64,000 nucleotides of DNA from assembly GCA_963808235.1 (NCBI GenBank), contig CAWEEQ010000004.1, positions 864,001 through 928,000 of the forward strand, written 5' to 3'. Below are positions 54,101 to 64,000 of the stretch, one piece after another. The position numbers and the translations under genes were made by a program. This stretch comes from an uncultured delta proteobacterium. Its GTDB lineage: Bacteria; Desulfobacterota; Binatia; Binatales; Binataceae. Under the pieces are notes generated by a model. That model worked only from the letters and a program-made list of their open reading frames with translations, was not told the DNA's origin and ran no database searches. Within the stretch, counting starts at the first letter, position 1. Each line of letters starts with the position of its first letter.

Positions 54101-56308
54101 ATGGCAGAACGCAGGCCTACCGCGGAGCCGGCGCAGACGGTCGTCAAAGTCGGCAACGACTATTACGTGCTGGCCTCATCGCTGGCGTCGCGCCGCGCGA
54201 GCCATGTGCTTGCGAACGGGCGAAGTTTCGCCGTCTTCGAGATGGATGCCGACATTGTAGACTCCCCGCTCGAGGCACTCGGGTTTTTCAACTCCGATAC
54301 GAGGCACCTTAGCCGCTTCGAGATGCTGATCGACGGAGCCGCGCCGCACTATCTGAACTCCTATCTGAGTGACGATCGCGCGCAGGTCAGGTCGATCCTG
54401 ACAAACGCCGACCTGGGCGAGCGGTACAGTCCGAACTGGCTGCCACGCGACTCGATCCGGGTGGATCGCGGATGGGTCCTCAACGGCGCGGCGCTGTACC
54501 ATCACCTTACGCTGCGAAGCTACTTCCGCGAGCCATTGGATATCGAAATCGATTTTTTCTACAGCGTCGATTTCGCCGACGTCTTTGAAGTACGCGGCCT
54601 TCGCCGCGCGCGTCGCGGACTCATGCTGAAGCCCCGGGTCGAAGGCAGCCGGGTCGAGCTTAGCTACCAGGGGCTCGACAACGCGACACGTTCGACCGAG
54701 GTTCGCTTTGATTGCGCCCCAAAATCAATCGACGCTCAGCGCGCCGTGTTCGCGATGCGCCTCGAGCCGGGCGAGAACCACAAGCTCGAATGCCGGATCA
54801 CCGCGGGTGGAACGTCGCACGCCGCCCGCACGACGCCTTACGCGAGCAACTTCAGGGCGGCGGTCGAAGAGCGGCAATCCGAGCTCTCGCGGTTTCACGA
54901 CGGATGGGCGCGCATCGATGCGAGCGACCGCGAGTTCTCTTCGATGATCCGGCGCGCAAAGGTAGATCTAACATCGATTGTGACGGACGCCAACGGCGGC
55001 GGCGCGTTCATCATGGCGGGCGTTCCCTGGTTCGCCACGCTTTTCGGACGCGACAGCATAATCACTGCGCTGTCGATCTTGCCTTTCCATCCGGAAATCG
55101 CGGCTCGAACTTTGCGCACGCTGGCGGCGTTTCAAGGTACGGCGGTCAACGAGGCGCGCGACGAGCAGCCCGGCAAAATAGTCCATGAGATCCGAAGCGG
55201 CGAGATGGCTGCCACGGGCGAAATTCCGTTCGGCCGATACTACGGCAGCGTGGACGCGACGCCGCTTTTTCTGTGGCTGTACGGGCGTTGCATCGATTCG
55301 ACCGGCGACCTCGAGCTTGCCAAAGAGCTCTGGCCGAACGTCGTGCGGGCTATCGAGTGGATCGAACGATGGGGCGATCGGGACGGCGACGGCTACGTCA
55401 AATATATGCGCGAGACTCCGCGCGGCCTCGACAACCAGGGCTGGAAGGATTCCGCTGACGCAATCTTTCATCACGACGGCGAGCTTGCGCGTCCGCCGAT
55501 CGCACTGGCCGAGGTGCAAGGCTACGTCTACGCGGCCTGCACGAGCGTGGCATCGGTCGCATCGCGTCTCGGACATGCTGAGTTCGCGGAGCGGCTGCTC
55601 ACCCGCGCCGCGGCGCTCAAGCAATCTTTCGAGCGTGACTTCTGGCTCGAGCGCGAGGGAATGATTGCGCTGGCGCTGGACGCGGGAGGTCGTCCGTGCC
55701 GCGTGATGGCGTCCAATGGGGCACATTGTCTCGCGACCGGGCTGATTGACGGCGAGCGCGCCGCAGCGATGTGCAAGCGGCTTCTGGCTGACGATATGTA
55801 TTCCGGATGGGGCATTCGCACGCTGTCGCGCAATGAACAGCGGTACAATCCGATGAGCTACCACAACGGCTCGGTGTGGCCGCATGACAACGCGATGGCG
55901 GCGCTGGGGCTCGCGCGCGCCGGCGATCACGCGGGCGTCGTCACGGTACTCGAAGGCCTGTTCGACGCATGCGGCCAGCTCAATCTTTCGAGTCTGCCCG
56001 AACTGTTCTGCGGCTTCCGGCGCGAGATGACTCTCGGCCCGGTGCCATATCCAGTCGCGTGTTTTCCGCAGGCGTGGTCGGCGGCCAGCGTCTTCATGAT
56101 CCTGCAGGCGATGCTTGGGATGCGCGTGCTTGGATTCGAGCGCCGCGTCGTCTTCGACATTCACCTGGTTCCATCGTGGCTGGATTGGCTCACCGTCGAA
56201 GGGCTGAAGGTGGGCGCAGGCCGCATCTCGTTCGTGCTGCGACGATCCCCCAACGGCGCCGCGATCGAAGTGAAAGAGGAGTCGGGCGGCATTCGCGTCG
56301 AGGTCTGA
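54101..56308 (+). CDS. Amylo-alpha-1,6-glucosidase-like (GDE N-terminal + alpha/alpha barrel)
   Basis: 'DTRHLS', 'DFADVFEVRG', 'AGVPWF.TLFGRD', 'EQPGKI.HE.R', 'NQGWKDS', 'YHNGSVWPHDN', 'LPELFCG', 'PQAW'. Confidence 0.92.
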   Translation: MAERRPTAEPAQTVVKVGNDYYVLASSLASRRASHVLANGRSFAVFEMDADIVDSPLEALGFFNSDTRHLSRFEMLIDGAAPHYLNSYLSDDRAQVRSILTNADLGERYSPNWLPRDSIRVDRGWVLNGAALYHHLTLRSYFREPLDIEIDFFYSVDFADVFEVRGLRRARRGLMLKPRVEGSRVELSYQGLDNATRSTEVRFDCAPKSIDAQRAVFAMRLEPGENHKLECRITAGGTSHAARTTPYASNFRAAVEERQSELSRFHDGWARIDASDREFSSMIRRAKVDLTSIVTDANGGGAFIMAGVPWFATLFGRDSIITALSILPFHPEIAARTLRTLAAFQGTAVNEARDEQPGKIVHEIRSGEMAATGEIPFGRYYGSVDATPLFLWLYGRCIDSTGDLELAKELWPNVVRAIEWIERWGDRDGDGYVKYMRETPRGLDNQGWKDSADAIFHHDGELARPPIALAEVQGYVYAACTSVASVASRLGHAEFAERLLTRAAALKQSFERDFWLEREGMIALALDAGGRPCRVMASNGAHCLATGLIDGERAAAMCKRLLADDMYSGWGIRTLSRNEQRYNPMSYHNGSVWPHDNAMAALGLARAGDHAGVVTVLEGLFDACGQLNLSSLPELFCGFRREMTLGPVPYPVACFPQAWSAASVFMILQAMLGMRVLGFERRVVFDIHLVPSWLDWLTVEGLKVGAGRISFVLRRSPNGAAIEVKEESGGIRVEV

Positions 56309-56564
56309 CGAGCGATCGCGGCCGGCGGCAGGGATTTTTCGAAATTCGGCTGCATTGCCATTACTTGCCATCGTGGCGAATCCGACGCCTAGTTGGCGGG
56401 CCGGAATTGCGGCTGATTTTCCGAAAACCACGCCATTTGGTTGGATTCCTGCACCGAATAGTTCACGCCACACGTTGAATACTCGAGCGAAAATGATTCC
56501 GAGCGCAGCTTGCCAAAATGCCGGGTAGCGTCGTGGTGCGGTTGGACTGGCCCTGACAGATGTT

Positions 56565-56658
56565 TCTTGCAGGCGCACGAAGCCATCATCCTACGCGCGT
56601 GTGGTTTGGGTAAGGCTGAACAGTTCATCCCTGAACTTTGGTGGCGATCCGGAAGATT
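56565..56658. repeat. Left half-element: outer inverted-repeat arm plus 77-bp core (copy 1)
   Basis: 56582-56658 matches 59004-59080 (76/77 nt); 56565-56583 is an inverted repeat of 59081-59099 (18/19 nt). Confidence 0.9.
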
Positions 56659-56765
56659 ATCGTTGCTAATGGCTGGCGGGGACGCAGCGGACCCACTTTG
56701 TCATCGACCACGTGCGCCCCGGTGCGAGCGGTCGCTGAGCGCGCGTGATCGCCTCAGGAAACGGG

Positions 56766-57140
56766 TCACATTCCAGAACTGAGAGCGAAGACGAGATCGA
56801 TTACAGCGCCAATCAGAAATACTGAACCGAAAATGATATATGCCCACCTATACAAAGGAAGCGCATCGGAAGTGTCCTTACGGAAAAACCACTTGTTTGG
56901 TCGGGCCGCCGAGCGTGCAGCGTCCTCGTTGCGAACCACGCAGAGCAATCCGAAGGCAGCTGCAAATAAGTCCCTGACTACTCTGAACCTCACTGGTCCT
57001 AAGTAGTGCCGACCAGGAATGAAGATGAGGACAGCAATTAGTATCGCCCCTGCCGAAATGTAGGGGGATATCCGCCCGACCTCCGCAGACTCGTTATGCG
57101 ATTTGCGAGGGGAAAACTGGGACCACCAGCTGCTTTTCAT
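56766..57140 (-). CDS. Small membrane protein, putative immunity protein for the orphan RHS tip
   Basis: 124 aa with about 3 hydrophobic helices, low GC, downstream of the RHS C-terminus. Confidence 0.65.
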   Translation of the reverse strand: MKSSWWSQFSPRKSHNESAEVGRISPYISAGAILIAVLIFIPGRHYLGPVRFRVVRDLFAAAFGLLCVVRNEDAARSAARPNKWFFRKDTSDALPLYRWAYIIFGSVFLIGAVIDLVFALSSGM

Positions 57141-57384
57141 CTGATACCTGCGTTACTAGCGATTTTCCCATTGTTTTATTGACCGTGCGATTCACTGCAA
57201 AGCCATGGCGAACGTAGCCGATTCCATCTGTAAAAAAGACTATCGCGTCGTCGGGATCGAACTGGAACAATCGACACCTTATACATTGCGCCATTCGAGC
57301 GCTTGGCTCGCAACACCCTCGTTGCGAATCGCGGACGCGGGTCCGACCGAAGCGCAGACCGTTCTATGAAAACCATAAACATCA

Positions 57385-59003
57385 CTAATAGTTGAACGGT
57401 CCAAAAACGTAGTAACCGGTCAATGATAAACCCGCGGGGAGTCCGGTGCCGACTTCCCAGAAGAATCCAGATCCGAAGGCAATACCAACTTGTCCTGCTA
57501 CTCCTTGCGCAACACCCTGCAATCCGACTTGCCAGCCATGCGTTACACTATCGCCCAATGTCAGAGAGCCGCTGGCGCCAGGCGGGTAAACAAACGCGCC
57601 TCCAAGGTACGGATAATAGCCAGAGCTCGTAAGTTGAACGCCGCCCGTGACGCCTAAATAAAGGAGAGCCGGGCCAAACCCAATAGTGACATTAGCATCG
57701 GCGTAACTATCGCCCGCGAGCATCGCGAGCTGCTCGCCCATGCCAGGCGAGACCGCGTCCAGCTCGCCGATCATGACCGCAGTTGCGTCCGGATTGCCCC
57801 CCAATGCTACTCCGGCTACTCCGCCGGGTAAGCCCCACCAACCCGAACCCCAATTTGGTAATCCAATCGATGGTACGCCTCCCACCACAAAAGCACCGGT
57901 GGGATCGGTTCCGTTGAGTGGCGAATTGCCTGCGTAGGCATAAAGGGCTAAGTAGCTTCCGCCCGACAAGCCCAGGGGGTCGCGCGAAAGGAACCGAAGA
58001 TAATAGAAAGTGTCCAAGTAGCGCGAGCGGTTGTAATAGAGCGTGCCGCCGGTGTTGTCCACCACTTCCCGACCCGCAAATTGATAAGGATTGTCGTTGA
58101 TGGGGCCGCTGGGCACTGTGTATCCAAATGCTGAATAACTATAGCGGGTCTGTATGGCGCCGCTGGAATCGGTCAAGGCAACTGTTGAGCCGAGCGCATC
58201 GGTCAGGAAGTACATCGTGACTCCGCCGCTGGTTCGCGCAAAATGATCGTCCACGGCGAGCCCGTTGAGCACATCGGCCCAGCTCCCGGACGTATTCTGC
58301 TCCTGCGCCACATTCGATCCATCGTACAAAAAGTTCGTCACGTGTGAGTTACTGCCAGTATAATTCTCGGTCACTCTTCTCCCAAACGGATCGTATACAA
58401 ACGTTTCGCTTGACGTCTGTCCTGAATTCAGGTTCTGGTTCTCCGCCAGCTGGTTCCTACTGTTGTAGGTGAAAACCAAGCCCGAAGCTCCCGACGTCAT
58501 GTCCCCGGCGCTGTTCGCGCCGGTGCCATTAATAGATCCATCTTTGCCGTAAGTATAGCTACCGGCCTGATTACCAGGCGGTACGTACGCTGATACGGTC
58601 GAGGCAAGACTGCCTGTAATCTCTATCCGCCTGCCATCCGCGTCGTAGTCGTAGCCCAAGTTACCCAGTTGATTGAGGCCCTTGGAATAGACGATCGTGG
58701 TCACCCGGGAGTCTGCGTCGAAGCCATAGGCCTCATTGACTCCATTGGCGTAACTGACTGAGGTGCGGTGGTTATCCGAGTCATATTGCAGCTGCACTGT
58801 GCCGGTGTCCGATCGCGACACGCTGGTGAGATTGGTGTCAAGGTCGTAATTGTAGGTGACTTGCGCCTGCGAGCCGGCGCGCATCGTTTGACGCCGTTTG
58901 TCGGTGTCATAAGTGTAGGTAACCGTTCCCGCGGCGCCTTGCTGTTCGGTGAGAACCTGGTCGAGATTGTTGTAGGTCCGAGCGGTCGTGGTATTGACAT
59001 TCT
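57385..59003 (-). CDS. Orphan (5'-truncated) RHS core plus toxin tip
   Basis: YD repeats, 'TDALGS', 'YQFAGRE..LYY.R.RY..RFLSRDPLG..YAYAGNSP..TDPTG'. RHS homology extends in frame upstream of ATG 58884 to about 59003 (QNVNTTTARTYNNLDQVLTE). Confidence 0.85.
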
Positions 59004-59099
59004 GCCATCATCCTACGCGCCTGTGGTTTGGGTAAGGCTGAACAGTTCATCCCTGAACTTTGGTGGCGATCCGGAAGATTGCTTCGTGCGTCTGCAAGA
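59004..59099. repeat. Right half-element: 77-bp core (copy 2) plus outer inverted-repeat arm
   Basis: See 56565-56658. Confidence 0.9.
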
Positions 59100-59104
59100 G
59101 CTGC

Positions 59105-59860
59105 TTACTTCCCGAGCTTGGAGCACTCCGTCCACGAGCCGTAATGCTCCGGATGCACCCAGTCTCGGCACATCCTCGGCGCGTTCCCATGCAGCACCTT
59201 TTCACAGCTTAGCCCGCTCTTGTATGGAGTCAGGAATCCAGTTTGTTCCGCTTGAGCGGTTGTAGCGGTCGGATCCCGTCGCACGGATACCGCAAGAATG
59301 ATGAAAGCAGGATTGCCATTCTTATCGAGTGACATATCACGAAAATCGAGAGTCAGTTCAAGGTTACGTAGCCGAAAGTGGCGCAGCGCCCCATACTCCG
59401 GGTATCGTCCGCACGCGCCGATCAGGTCACGAAAATTTATGACCCGTCCGCGCGAGAACCAATAGGGTGACTCATCTTCAGAAAGGAGACTGTTCTCTAT
59501 TTCGTGACTGTTACCTTTCGTAAGTCCGCAAGCGAACTGTCCAACATAGTTCGTGTCTTTGGTGCCGCCGAAGATCGAAGGGTTCCCCAGGAATCCGTTA
59601 CTTCCGCCGACGCAAATGAGGCTGTACTGAGTAATACCATGAACGTCGAGCAGCGGCAGGGTAAAGAAAATTCCATTGGCCGAGGTGTCGATTCCGACCT
59701 TCGCGGTAAACTCCGCGATGATCGGCCATTGTTGTTCCGCGCAATGGCCGAGACTTGGCTTGCAGAAGGCAAATATCAGTAAGAAGACGACGATAACTCT
59801 GGACCTCATTTCGGTCCGAACCTCATATGCCGGAAACTCCATAAGTACTCTGTTCGACAT
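59105..59860 (-). CDS. Exported Cys-containing protein, putative immunity protein of the main RHS
   Basis: Starts immediately after the RHS stop (TAAATG; alternative start 59809 with signal peptide MRSRVIVVFLLIFAFC); several Cys; lower GC. Confidence 0.7.
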   Translation of the reverse strand: MSNRVLMEFPAYEVRTEMRSRVIVVFLLIFAFCKPSLGHCAEQQWPIIAEFTAKVGIDTSANGIFFTLPLLDVHGITQYSLICVGGSNGFLGNPSIFGGTKDTNYVGQFACGLTKGNSHEIENSLLSEDESPYWFSRGRVINFRDLIGACGRYPEYGALRHFRLRNLELTLDFRDMSLDKNGNPAFIILAVSVRRDPTATTAQAEQTGFLTPYKSGLSCEKVLHGNAPRMCRDWVHPEHYGSWTECSKLGK

Positions 59861-62800
59861 TTACATGGTGCCCTGTGGACATCCGAGACCGGCTGGAACA
59901 TGGATCGTAACAAGAGCATTTGCACCTTGATCCGCAGCGCCAGGTATTTCAATTATCAGTTGTCCTGGAAACCGCTGCTGGAGAAGTGCGCGCGCGCCGG
60001 CTGGCCCCACCACGTCGGTCACGCTAGAAAACGAGGCATTGCCGATAGTGCCAGAGATTTGTGCCGCGGAAGGGGCGAGGGCGGCGCCATTCGCAACTCC
60101 GAACTGCTGTGGAATTACCGCGGCTGTACCAGCCTGAACCGTCTGGCCGGGGATGCCACCGGGTCTACCCACGAGGCGCATGTTGCCTGCGAGACCGCGC
60201 CCCACACCCGTGCATGTTGGGTCGGAGGTCGCCGGCAAGGGACTTTCGGTCGGGGCTTCGCTGATTCCATTAAGTGTGGTTAGCACCGGGCCTGGCATTT
60301 GCTTTTCCTTGCGCGTGGGCGTCTGCTGGTCGCTCCCGCCAAAGAGATCGAGGCCAAATATCTCTTCGAGAATCGAAGCGATTATTGAAACCGGAATTCC
60401 GACAGGGGGAACAGCGATATCCAAGCCGGATAGTGCTACCAGTTGAGTCGCTAAAAATTGTGCCGCCAAACCTGCGGCGAGCGAAGAAGCATCTCGTACA
60501 GCGGTATTAGCTGCGTATTGACCGACTTGCTCTCCGAAACTTGGCCCGCCATTGCCTCCGCTCGATCCTCCGCCACCCCCGGAGCCTCCTCCGCCACCGC
60601 CGCCACCGCCCGCACCAGTAGTGCTGGTGGGACCAATTTCCGACAAGGGTCGTACTAGCCGGGGGCTGTAATACACGCTCATTGTGTAATAGAGCCCGGT
60701 CGGATCCATCTCCATTGCGCCAAACTCATACGGGTCGGGTATCGATGCGCCGCTGACTGTCGGAGTTCCGTTCGGGTCATAGGTGAACGAGTTCGCGACG
60801 CTCCCAGTCGAAGCGACATGGGCGATCGTCGAGCCGCTCAGATCATGCAACGGTACCCAAATTGAGGTTGTCCCGGAAACTGTATTCGCGAACGCAACGA
60901 CTTCGCCCAATCCCGGAATCACCAGAATGTCATTGGTCGAGACTCCAGCCGTGGAATGCACGACCATCGAGCCGTCGTGAAGATACGCTGTGGAAGTACC
61001 TGCCGACACCGCGATCCGGCGACGGCTGAGCGCGTCGTAGGTCGGAGTCAATCCGGGAGAGATTGTCCCCACGCTCGAAAGCTGGTTGCGCGAGTCCCAC
61101 GAATAGGTTGCCAAGGTTGCCGGATCAGAAGTCAGATTGCTGGCGGCGTCGTGCGTTGCCGATGCGTTGTTGAAAAGCTTGATCTGGTTGGTGTTGGTGT
61201 AGGTCGCGGTAATCAACGGGGGAAGATTGACACGTGCGAACGTGCCGCCCTCGCCCACGACGCGGCCGTCAGTATCGTAGCTATAGGTCAGGTTGCCTAG
61301 CATCGTGCCGGTGACACCCGAACAGGTCGGACCGCTTAGCGCCGTGCTGCTGTCTCCGTAGTACAATGCGCACGGGCGTGACGCGGCATCGTAAGCATAA
61401 GCCGTCATGACTCCATTCGCCGCCACGCCGGTGGTGGTCAAGCTCGCGCGGCGACCGTCGCCGTCGTAAGCCAAAGCTGCGGCTACGCTAGGATTCGAAA
61501 CCGTTTTGAGTTGATCGTCGTTGAAATAGGTGTAGTTGGCCTGAGCCTGGGTTCCGGCCTGCATCGTCGTGCGTCGGCCGTTGGTGTCGTAGTTGTAGGT
61601 GACGGTGCCCTCCGGAGTCGTTTCTGTCAGGATATTGTCCATGCCATCGTAGGTATAAGTGAGCTCCGGGTTATTGACATTATATGCAGAGTCGGTAATC
61701 GAGATGATATTATCGAACGCATCGTGAGTATAATTCAAGGTCCGGGTATCGATGCCACTGACGTTGTTCGTATTGAAAACGATCTTATAGATCCGCCCGA
61801 ATGCGCCATAGGTATAGTTATCGACAACTCCTCTCTTGTCTGTGAACTGGCTTCGCCGCCCCATCACGTCCTGGTTTTCGACTGTGCACTTGCTGTTGGC
61901 ATCACAGCTCGTGATCACGTCCAGCGTCCCGTTCCGTGTGATCGTTGACACGTTGCCGTTAGCGTCCGTGATCTGCTTAACATTGCCGGTCAAATCATAG
62001 AGATAGCTGGTAGAATTGTTGTCCCCGTCAACCTGCGTCGTGACCTCGCTCAACGCATTGTACGCATACGTTGTAGTTTCCCGCAGCGGCGATGTGGCAG
62101 TAATCACCCGTCCTACGTTATCGGTCACATATGTGGTCTCGTTGCCCAATGAATCGGTCACTGAGGCCAAGTCGCCGTTGGAATTGTAACTGTAAGACGT
62201 CGGTGGGTTGCCGAGCGGATCGGTGACGCTCTTAGTCTGTCCGTTCTGAAAAAAGACTATAGTCGTTGTCCTACCTAGCGGGTCCGTAAACGTCTCGTTC
62301 GGAATTGAGTCGCTATAGACATACGTGGTTGCAGGAGTCAACGGTTCCTTAACGCTCGCGATCCGGTCGAAAGTCGGCTCATAGGTGTAGGTCGTCGTGG
62401 CGGACGGATTACTCGTTCCAGGCCCTGGCGTATGCGTGACGGTAAGCAGATCGCCGGTGGTTGGATCGTAGGTGTAGCTCGAAGTCCTGGCGTTCGCTCC
62501 ATTCTGGTCGGTCTGTACGAGTGATTGAATAAATTCACACTCGCCGGTCTCCTGAGTCCCGCAAGTCCCACGAGTGATGGTGGTGGGTTCATTGTTGGTT
62601 AACGCCGGATTCCGGTTGTCTTTGATCAAGTATCCGTTCTGATCGAAATTGAAATTCCGGGTGAAAGTATCCGGCAAGACGACGTGACATTGCTGGATAA
62701 ACGTATTTGTGGGATCGAGCGCGTAAGTGTACTGATAGCCGCCGGCCGGAACGGTGGTACTGATCCCATTGAACCGGTTTTTTGCATCGTAAGTTATGAA

Positions 62801-63745
62801 CGTCGAATACTGCGAGGGGCCTCCGCTCGTTTGGTTGTGAGTGTTCTGAATAATCGTGGTAAGGTCGCCCTGCCCTGCATTTGCGGTCTGCTGATATTGG
62901 TAGGTAGTTGTCGCATTGGTGTCGTAGCTTACTTGCGTCACCGAGGTGAGTGCCGCAGAAGTGCCGTCGTAAGTGTAGTCAACCTCTCTGGTGCCGCCAC
63001 TGTCTTTGATCGAACTCGGGTTTTTCGGGTGGTTACACTGCGTGCCGTAAGTGAAAGTCACGTACCGTCCCGAAGATGAACTGACCTGGGTGATTACGGG
63101 TGTGACGGGGCTGCACGAATTGACTGCCCGGGTGATGGTTATCGCGTTGCCGTACCGATCGGTGATGCTCTGCAGCGCGGCACCAGAAGGGAAAAAATAG
63201 ACGGTTCCGTCCTTGCGCTTCAGATCCCAGCCCGGGGTGCTCGAGTTGTAAGTGATGACCGAGTTGAACCAGGCTCCAGTTGGTTGCGAATTGCAGGTAA
63301 GGCTGGCGGTCGTGTAGGAACTGCAATTCGCACCCGCGGTACACTGGCAAGTTATCTGCCCGCCATCCGGCATGACCACGCTGGCGTTCGCATACGGGTT
63401 AGCCTGGTTGTTAACCTCGGCGCTCGAGTAGAGGTAAATGTCATAGTTCAGACTGGTGCCCAGACCAAAGGCGCGATTGTACCAAGTGCCGTTACCGTTC
63501 TGATCGCGTGACCGATACACGCGCGTAATGTTGATCGGCATCGAGCCGGCGACTGAGAGATCGGTTTTGGTATAGGTGAAGAGGCCGCTGGAAAGTGCCG
63601 TGAAACTCTCGCCGGGAGCCGGACCTTTATTCGGCGGAGTCCCTCCGGTAAGCACGTAAGCTTGCGCGATCTGGCTGGAAGCCAGAAGCGCGAGCACCGC
63701 AATAATGAGGACCGTAGCCGCCTTGAAACAGGATTGAGTCTTCAT
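59861..63745 (-). CDS. RHS/YD-repeat protein with Sec signal peptide and variant C-terminal tip
   Basis: Signal peptide (...IAQA), DUF6531-like 'TDLSV.G.MPI.ITRVYRS...FG.G', many YD/RHS repeats, degenerate core, Gly linker, tip; RBS GAGG. Confidence 0.92.
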   Translation of the reverse strand: MKTQSCFKAATVLIIAVLALLASSQIAQAYVLTGGTPPNKGPAPGESFTALSSGLFTYTKTDLSVAGSMPINITRVYRSRDQNGNGTWYNRAFGLGTSLNYDIYLYSSAEVNNQANPYANASVVMPDGGQITCQCTAGANCSSYTTASLTCNSQPTGAWFNSVITYNSSTPGWDLKRKDGTVYFFPSGAALQSITDRYGNAITITRAVNSCSPVTPVITQVSSSSGRYVTFTYGTQCNHPKNPSSIKDSGGTREVDYTYDGTSAALTSVTQVSYDTNATTTYQYQQTANAGQGDLTTIIQNTHNQTSGGPSQYSTFITYDAKNRFNGISTTVPAGGYQYTYALDPTNTFIQQCHVVLPDTFTRNFNFDQNGYLIKDNRNPALTNNEPTTITRGTCGTQETGECEFIQSLVQTDQNGANARTSSYTYDPTTGDLLTVTHTPGPGTSNPSATTTYTYEPTFDRIASVKEPLTPATTYVYSDSIPNETFTDPLGRTTTIVFFQNGQTKSVTDPLGNPPTSYSYNSNGDLASVTDSLGNETTYVTDNVGRVITATSPLRETTTYAYNALSEVTTQVDGDNNSTSYLYDLTGNVKQITDANGNVSTITRNGTLDVITSCDANSKCTVENQDVMGRRSQFTDKRGVVDNYTYGAFGRIYKIVFNTNNVSGIDTRTLNYTHDAFDNIISITDSAYNVNNPELTYTYDGMDNILTETTPEGTVTYNYDTNGRRTTMQAGTQAQANYTYFNDDQLKTVSNPSVAAALAYDGDGRRASLTTTGVAANGVMTAYAYDAASRPCALYYGDSSTALSGPTCSGVTGTMLGNLTYSYDTDGRVVGEGGTFARVNLPPLITATYTNTNQIKLFNNASATHDAASNLTSDPATLATYSWDSRNQLSSVGTISPGLTPTYDALSRRRIAVSAGTSTAYLHDGSMVVHSTAGVSTNDILVIPGLGEVVAFANTVSGTTSIWVPLHDLSGSTIAHVASTGSVANSFTYDPNGTPTVSGASIPDPYEFGAMEMDPTGLYYTMSVYYSPRLVRPLSEIGPTSTTGAGGGGGGGGGSGGGGGSSGGNGGPSFGEQVGQYAANTAVRDASSLAAGLAAQFLATQLVALSGLDIAVPPVGIPVSIIASILEEIFGLDLFGGSDQQTPTRKEKQMPGPVLTTLNGISEAPTESPLPATSDPTCTGVGRGLAGNMRLVGRPGGIPGQTVQAGTAAVIPQQFGVANGAALAPSAAQISGTIGNASFSSVTDVVGPAGARALLQQRFPGQLIIEIPGAADQGANALVTIHVPAGLGCPQGTM

Positions 63746-63756
63746 ATGGTCCTCAT

Positions 63757-64000
63757 TTAGTTCTGTGTGAATTGGAAGGGGAGTGAGGCTTCGCCGGTTG
63801 GCGTCGTCAAAGTGTTGAGTCCAGGCGCGGCTCCAGTCGGAACGATGGCCACGATCGTGGTCTGCGTCGAGGAGATAATCGTGGCGTTCACTTGTCCATT
63901 GTGGCCATTGTTGAAAGCCACGGTGTTCTGCGCGGGACTCGTGCCAAAGCCGTCTCCAGAAATCAAAAATTGAGTACCGACCGGGCCATTGTTCGGTGAC
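63757..64000 (-). CDS. 3' end of an IPT/TIG-domain protein (partial)
   Basis: 'SPNNGPVGTQFLISGDGFG..PAQNTVAFN....ATI.SST.TTIVAIVP.GA' IPT/TIG pattern; frame runs off the window. Confidence 0.8.
   Translation of the reverse strand, partial: SPNNGPVGTQFLISGDGFGTSPAQNTVAFNNGHNGQVNATIISSTQTTIVAIVPTGAAPGLNTLTTPTGEASLPFQFTQN

Follow-up and report, generated by a model that had tools for sequence, protein, structure and literature searches.

An orphan RHS tip and its probable immunity gene between short non-coding repeats with outer inverted arms in a Binataceae genome

Jackson et al. (2009; PMC2935791) explain orphan rhs tips by a circular intermediate that enters through one homologous crossover, after which the stacked unit is flanked by direct repeats; in their cases these repeats consist of the RHS core and are nearly identical to the gene upstream. 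Orphan tips and C-terminal displacement are also the subject of Poole et al. (2011; PMC3150448) and of Koskiniemi et al. (2014; PMC3967940). We describe here a locus of this general kind in the genome of an uncultured delta proteobacterium of the family Binataceae (GCA_963808235.1, hereafter G000), in a 64-kb window on its contig C4 (G000:C4:864001-928000); coordinates given without a contig name are positions in that window. Like published orphan tips, the locus holds a partial core, a tip and an immunity gene, silent and downstream of an intact rhs-immunity pair. Unlike the orphans of Jackson et al. (2009), its core shares 35% amino acid (aa) identity and no nucleotide (nt) match with the core of the main RHS gene upstream, and the only repeat is a 77-nt non-RHS, non-coding sequence with inverted arms. 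We think it rather likely that the locus is a stockpiled orphan RHS tip with its immunity gene, and that the repeats and arms are the one-off scar of general recombination or template switching.

Other described systems resemble the locus in part. Integron cassettes, like this one, carry promoterless cargo, and their attC sites are imperfectly palindromic, hairpin-forming and about 60-140 nt long; unlike integrons, the locus has no integron integrase and a single cassette with no array, its repeat family stands beside housekeeping genes at conserved positions, and the integron core sites RYYYAAC/GTTRRRY do not fit the palindrome found here, GCTGAAC/GTTCAGC. Repetitive extragenic palindromes (REPs), bacterial interspersed mosaic elements and miniature inverted-repeat transposable elements (MITEs) are matched by the repeat in being short, partly palindromic, multicopy, intergenic and limited to one genus; unlike them, it keeps its orthologous sites across species, shows neither terminal inverted repeats nor target duplications, and is accompanied by no REP-associated tyrosine transposase (RAYT) or Y1 transposase. 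In quasi-palindrome template switching and microhomology-mediated break repair, the end of a nascent strand pairs anew with an imperfect inverted repeat close by and copies it, leaving a perfect arm beside a duplicated segment; the known cases are mostly point or short-tract changes, whereas the rearrangement here, read from sequence only, would be on the kilobase scale.

Anatomy of the cassette and its borders

The cassette lies between two direct repeats of 77 nt (56582-56658 and 59004-59080; arms and repeats are given without strand), which are 76/77 identical (99%), with a G/C difference at 56599/59021 as the sole mismatch that the repeat finder lists; the copies are spaced 2,422 nt start to start and separated by 2,345 nt. 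Outside them stand a left inverted arm (A, 56565-56583) and a right inverted arm (A', 59081-59099), the latter within the 24 nt that separate the repeat from the stop of a 251-aa gene. Read from the sequence, the outer 19 nt of the arms match at 18/19 positions, and the repeat finder extends the pairing to 27 nt (56565-56591 / 59073-59099; 24/27 complementary, 89%), a further 6/8 nt into the 77-nt repeat, so that the repeat ends are quasi-palindromic. Two palindromes, TGAAC-A-GTTCA and AGTTCA-TCCC-TGAACT, lie inside the repeat. The initial annotation of this DNA had given 77-bp direct repeats with one mismatch around 2,345 bp, an outer inverted repeat at 56565-56583 / 59081-59099, an inverted match running into the core at about 24/27 and the same two overlapping palindromes, and each of these was recovered. 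A self-comparison over 10 kb (C4:919500-929500) returned this 77-nt/arm structure as the only repeat, besides low-complexity matches in a flanking gene, and a 19-nt inverted match abutting both 77-nt copies cannot be chance. The layout, a cassette between direct repeats with inverted arms outside, is thereby confirmed as real.

Joining the two arms around one repeat gives a hypothetical 113-nt arm-repeat-arm element that folds into a single long hairpin (-56.6 kcal/mol, z = -5.7 vs. 200 shuffles). Reading the sequence at 56564/59100 revealed no target-site duplication, a scan for consensus promoters and terminators gave no match at either 77-nt repeat, and Rfam covariance models gave 0 matches over 55500-60500 at E up to 1.

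The larger part of the cassette is an orphan RHS fragment on the minus strand (57385-59003), recognised by a Pfam RHS_repeat match (8.5e-10, on 57385-58884), by its translation and by homology to a protein of a relative, G015. Its frame of 538 aa is read as RHS repeats from position 59001 on and stops at 57385; a stop codon lies two codons upstream of the start of the RHS reading, inside the right 77-nt repeat, and the first in-frame ATG is at 58884. RHS proteins carry a conserved core-end motif of the DPxGL type, and the fragment is made up of an RHS-repeat part of ~374 aa, which closes with a DPLGL...DPTG core end (...LSRDPLGLSGGSY...NSPLNGTDPTG in translation), and a Gly-rich tip of 164 aa (57388-57879). 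Compared with a full RHS protein, roughly 665 N-terminal residues are missing, the fragment beginning at ~residue 669 of the G015 homolog, and Pfam finds DUF6531 only in the main RHS gene, not in the fragment; since the delivery region at the N-terminus, with DUF6531 and the beginning of the shell, is lacking, we regard it as an orphan and not as a deliverable toxin. The G015 protein is a 1,196-aa RHS protein whose C-terminal part is 50.6% identical to orphan residues 5-412, and after this related full-length gene stands a homolog (54% identical) of the 124-aa protein encoded in our cassette, so that the orphan is the 3' portion of a formerly complete gene of this RHS type; no copy of the motif described below lies near the G015 gene. 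RHS homology had been said to stop right at the core boundary, and it does: the RHS reading starts at 59001, and the G015 alignment starts at residue 5 of the fragment.

Neither the 164-aa tip nor the tip of the main RHS protein has a Pfam match; the nearest atlas clusters of the orphan tip are PT-VENN/Ntox25 (0.87-0.91), which we take as a lead only. Downstream of it on the minus strand lies the gene for the 124-aa membrane protein (56766-57140), which has hydrophobic stretches at 21-50 and 96-124, a paralog of 56% identity at C4:1130142-1130462, and a single weak Pfam match, to DUF2970, below cut-off; this protein probably confers immunity to the orphan tip. A further minus-strand open reading frame (ORF) of 69 aa (57176-57385) is Arg-rich, has a coding score of -0.30 per codon and no family match, and is probably not a gene. 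On the ORF map the tip and immunity gene are located downstream of the complete rhs gene on the same strand. The cassette content first proposed, a truncated RHS core with a toxin tip and a putative immunity gene between the repeats, therefore stands.

A genus-wide repeat family and the native setting of the left copy

The right-hand 40-65 nt of the 77-nt repeat form its conserved part, which recurs genome-wide as an intergenic motif (GTAAGGCTGAACAGTTCATCCCTGAAC...GATTAnCGTTGCTAATGG; left copy at 56606-56672, given without strand, and a second window copy at 59028-59080). G000 has 22 matches to it (23-mer, ≤4 mismatches), including the two in the window. It is present in 36/36 genomes of the genus (34/34 when the unpublished G018 and G023 are set aside) vs. 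0/24 genomes from other genera of the class. At 27 of the 29 best loci from relatives, one of them from the unpublished G023, the motif is found at one shared orthologous position, at a distance of 27 nt from where a Mu-like_Pro gene starts; this count covers best matches only. The genes beside the G000 copies are unrelated housekeeping genes (e.g. ribBA, ftsY, DAHP synthase and pyrophosphatase), and for the 20 copies outside the window a gene start lies within 351 nt on the RHS-strand side in 11/20 and within 353 nt on the other side in 8/20. The motif often stands between divergent genes, and some copies contain the 15-nt palindrome GCTGAAC-A-GTTCAGC.

None of 46 other motif copies examined has flanking inverted repeats of more than 11 nt. 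Family members share the internal 40-65 nt and not their ends, and the window pair is the only one within 10 kb in G000, with no other pair bracketing cargo. Because the copies sit at conserved orthologous positions across species, they appear not to move; judged by these comparisons, the motif is an apparently immobile, conserved intergenic element and not a MITE, and it may serve as an operator or promoter. Two readings of the repeat as small proteins (AEQFIPEL..., LNSSSLNF...) were rejected, there being no consistent start or length across copies. Two further small intergenic repeat families, the GGCAGGGGTGACCCCTGC and AATGTGAAACCCGCGGTGGGTTTCAC hairpins, occur at several G000 loci (e.g. 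C2:83860-83930, on another contig of the genome) and lie downstream of three motif copies.

The left repeat belongs to a longer piece that we call module U, a non-coding end piece of the RHS island (56309-56691, minus strand) that contains the left arm, the 77 nt, a GTTGCTAATGG flank and about 250 nt more. Its 362 nt have an uninterrupted paralog elsewhere on the contig (56330-56691 vs. C4:1106907-1107269; 73% identical over 364 nt), in which the same arm stands in the same place. Homology with the paralog spans both borders of the left 77-nt copy, for 252 nt on one side and 33 nt on the other, and both left junctions are thus native. The GTTGCTAATGG flank, found after the left copy and after many though not all other family copies in G000, is missing from the right copy. 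The new junctions are those on the two sides of the right copy, between RHS fragment and repeat and between repeat and inverted arm. At the two positions where the window copies differ, the right copy has the base of the paralog.

Another RHS array has at its end a second copy of the last 68 nt of module U (C2:89314-89381 vs. 56309-56376). A protein reading of the module was discarded: the frame is open in both paralogs, but substitutions are spread 25/30/26 over the three codon positions, and this evenness indicates that module U is non-coding. Its single-strand folds show no extra stability over shuffles (z-scores +1.95 and -0.43), and a two-sequence consensus fold was uninformative. On the same contig as the paralog, a 3.35-kb unit (G000:C4:1102952-1106301) has perfect 25-nt inverted ends around an IS1595-type transposase gene; that gene was considered as a relation of the paralog and set aside as unrelated, since it belongs to its own 3.35-kb unit ~600 nt off.

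Origin of the layout

The initial annotation, which had noted that no recombinase lies in the window and had advised looking beyond it, is borne out on the first point, and the wider search extends the result. Pfam finds no recombinase within the RHS island; the tyrosine recombinase family PF00589 has five matches in the genome, the nearest on this contig ~1 Mb away, so that none lies within 1 Mb; and both the serine recombinase family PF00239 and the Y1 HUH transposase family PF01797 have 0 matches in a genome that is 93% complete, with no RAYT/Y1. An unoccupied arm-repeat-arm site, or the same site with other cargo, was found neither in G000 nor in 46 other genomes of the genus nor by pattern scans of two public collections; this absence holds for the sampled genomes and collections, which may omit records of this genome, and is not proof. 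The 19-nt arm pattern did match 57 metagenome-contig and 116 genome-contig stretches, and these matches were put down to chance because the recovered loci lack the motif (≤5 mismatches).

Eight DNA runs and no RNA run are listed with the organism, and the contigs of four runs were compared with 55500-60500. At 2-5x, these runs give short contigs; none of those listed bridges either repeat, and no joints at the repeats were reported. One 178-nt contig from run X7 matches 59100-59219 without mismatch, and its other 58 nt diverge from the window at 59100, where the right arm has its outer edge. This is a weak hint that in another population the right arm does not stand next to the 251-aa gene, which would favour the first of the two routes given below.

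Other RHS arrays of the genome also have repeats at their borders. An array of RHS fragments with no full-length gene lies at 2.82 Mb of C4 (G000:C4:2820275-2826628). There, three copies of a sequence of 51-69 nt (90-98% identity) precede two RHS fragments and a NUDIX gene; the sequence comprises the promoter-like region of the NUDIX gene, its ribosome-binding site and ATGCCGC. Both fragments, of 422 and 221 aa, form in-frame fusions with a duplicated NUDIX leader, and the NUDIX gene ends the array. In 12 relatives the NUDIX gene has no RHS upstream (over about 9 kb in 11 of them and over 1.1 kb in one). At C2:84-89 kb, a 51-nt direct repeat of 82% identity (84053-84103 and 89416-89464) brackets two orphan RHS fragments; its downstream copy lies within a complete terminator hairpin, and its upstream copy holds only the left arm of that hairpin and abuts an RHS fragment. 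The gene flanking the C2 array has no ortholog in the genus at E 1e-80, and so no empty-site comparison was available there. The border repeats at the three loci are mutually unrelated in sequence, which agrees with duplication or homology-driven events and not with one sequence-specific enzyme. RHS arrays of four relatives all have repeats of the RHS core, 0.2-3.7 kb long.

The initial annotation had offered two explanations, an attL/attR-like site-specific integration and a composite MITE carrying toxin cargo. Dedicated integration would make the 113-nt hairpin an attachment site and the 2.4-kb segment a mobile cassette, served in integron-like or integrase-like fashion by a recombinase encoded elsewhere, and it would account for the same 77-nt sequence at both cassette borders with perfect-looking arms outside, for the strong hairpin of the rebuilt site and for RHS homology that ends exactly at the border. 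We nevertheless hold it to be improbable: the enzymes are absent over the distances given above, both junctions of the left copy are those of an uninterrupted paralog, the motif is genus-wide with its other copies free of arms and cargo, the other G000 arrays have unrelated border repeats, and neither an empty site nor an intact or split copy was seen in relatives or in the collection scans, where the loci with the arm pattern lacked the motif. That two small terminal-inverted-repeat elements together mobilised the toxin cargo is hardly credible. The 27-nt imperfect inverted ends and the origin of the repeat in a multicopy family would suit such a transposon, but the family shares internal sequence and no terminal inverted repeats, the two copies are direct and not inverted, no target site is duplicated, 0/46 copies have the inverted flanks, the positions are fixed across orthologs and the left arm sits inside a longer module that has a paralog.

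A quite different possibility is that the assembly misleads, the chromosome having one arm-repeat-arm site while the 2.4-kb segment with one repeat is a circle or belongs to another strain, the two being joined at the 77 nt. An insertion between repeats and a site plus a circle yield an identical assembly graph, no public contig bridges either repeat, and the X7 contig leaves the window at 59100; against this, the genome is in four contigs, which suggests long reads spanning 77 nt, contig depth in run X1 is similar and low on cassette and flanks (about 2-5.5x), the left junction matches the paralog, and the 5' truncation of the RHS gene in the cassette makes a sensible chromosomal junction. 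We rate this explanation as very unlikely. Of the original interpretation, then, the layout stands and entry by recombination at the 77 nt is possible, and the att-site and composite-MITE proposals both fail in the comparisons made. Beyond the window, neither intact nor split copies of the element were found in this genome or in the relatives searched, no other copy having arms or cargo, and most of what the initial annotation itself named as contrary evidence was observed, the motif being multicopy and genus-wide with no empty site and no second cargo-bearing copy.

In the reading that we prefer, the 77-nt repeats would be two copies of an internal piece of module U, each with one copy of the genus-wide motif. 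The left copy is the module in its native state, and the right copy with its arm would be secondary and partial, a product of the one rearrangement by which the RHS gene of the orphan was also truncated; the machinery would be the general recombination or replication of the cell, with no dedicated integrase or transposase. We infer the order of events and the route, of which two come into question. In route (i), to which we give a modest preference, local duplication or break repair would copy 77 nt out of module U, after which the end of the newly made strand (GGAAGATT) would mispair with the similar complement of the repeat start (GGATGATG), and the arm would be copied in reverse to give the inverted arm; the 6/8 extension of the inverted match corresponds to this pairing of GGAAGATT with the complement GGATGATG. 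In route (ii), an arm-repeat-arm hairpin would formerly have stood after the 251-aa gene, and a circle of the cassette and one module-U-type 77-nt copy would have entered it by homologous crossover, which requires that the recombinant left junction recreate the arrangement of the paralog by coincidence; this is the circle model of Jackson et al. (2009) applied to a homology other than RHS. The strong fold of the rebuilt 113-nt site is expected equally from both routes, and with two repeats of 99% identity a RecA-type loss of the cassette should be possible under either.

Several points weigh against a scar of general recombination or template switching. This is a single event for which intermediate, empty site and donor were not found, so that the route follows from parsimony alone, and the fold-back in route (i) needs three template junctions. 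The 24/27 inverted match gives a 113-nt hairpin, and an ancestral palindromic element split by insertion would look alike. As the public runs are shallow, the assembly across the repeats stands without independent confirmation. Since the orphan and main cores have no nucleotide similarity, the usual RHS-core route was unavailable and the locus is atypical.

The surrounding island and the storage of orphan tips

The left neighbour of the element had been read as a minus-strand ORF, wrongly: it is a plus-strand gene for a glycogen-debranching-type glycoside hydrolase (GDE; 54101-56308; Pfam GDE_N_bis 9.4e-48, MGH1-like_GH and GDE_C), with a coding score of 0.19 per codon vs. 0.03 for the overlapping minus-strand ORF. 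This is a conserved chromosomal gene, with orthologs in 21/46 other genomes of the genus and 78-83% identity in relatives, and it forms the left border of the RHS island. The stretches downstream of it hold an RHS gene, cassette gene or motif in 0/16 relatives. In three of six relatives compared by BLASTN, the convergent gene found in G000 at C4:928.7 kb comes within ~70-200 nt of the GDE stop; of the other three, two have 1.9-2.7 kb of other DNA at the same site and one differs. The short spacing in relatives without RHS delimits an island of 8.3 kb in G000 (C4:920,309 to about 928,626, that is, from 56309 to ~630 nt past the window end), which contains module U, the orphan cassette, the 251-aa gene, the main RHS gene and a 192-aa RHS/TIG ORF. 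Its GC content is 53-58% (60% in the main toxin tip), and that of the GDE gene is 63.5%. By its composition and position, the whole RHS locus is to all appearances a horizontally acquired low-GC island between the stops of two convergent genes, and the site downstream of GDE may be an insertion hotspot, given the other DNA found there in two relatives.

On the other side of the cassette, on the minus strand, the 251-aa ORF (59105-59860) encodes a protein with a single N-terminal hydrophobic segment (19-41) and no Pfam match, presumed to be the immunity partner of the main RHS protein. Its sole homolog in the genus, in G007 (59% identical), has no RHS gene, motif or hairpin nearby; because it stands alone, it supplied no ancestral site. 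The main RHS gene (59861-64000, minus strand; Pfam RHS_repeat 8e-15 and DUF6531) has its own toxin tip and encodes 1,294 aa from the first ATG, its frame being open to the window end. Its core (60553-61300) is 75% identical in nucleotides and 67% in amino acids to an orphan fragment on contig C2 (G000:C2:86692-87430), which may have a phospholipase A2-like tip (a single short Pfam match), and the two loci could conceivably exchange sequence. A separate ORF of 192 aa, in which an RHS repeat is accompanied by an IPT/TIG domain (63757-63999 onward; G000:C4:927757-928335), stands just upstream of the main RHS gene and may be a split-off N-terminal part or the product of a frameshift.

The locus is best filed as one rearrangement scar in one soil metagenome-assembled genome and as a variant of orphan RHS tip storage, not as a new mobile system. 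RHS tips are thought to be exchanged via homology of the RHS core, and the tip here is bracketed by a short non-RHS repeat and has no nucleotide similarity to the neighbouring full gene, which suggests that toxin and immunity stockpiles can also be built, and probably lost, via small intergenic repeats. A bolder reading, which we consider doubtful, is that the toxin-immunity cassettes of this lineage are stacked and shed by crossover at short non-RHS leaders instead of the RHS core, that the 2.4-kb cassette can be excised to leave the 113-nt hairpin, and that the duplicated leader, a promoter-like and genus-wide motif, gives the parked cassette its transcription start; the parallel would be the two RHS fragments of the same genome that are fused in frame to a duplicated NUDIX promoter, ribosome-binding site and start codon. 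If this were true, leader duplication would be a general route that both stores and expresses orphan tips, and, if the duplicated leaders are promoters, the continued expression of parked immunity genes would be explained.

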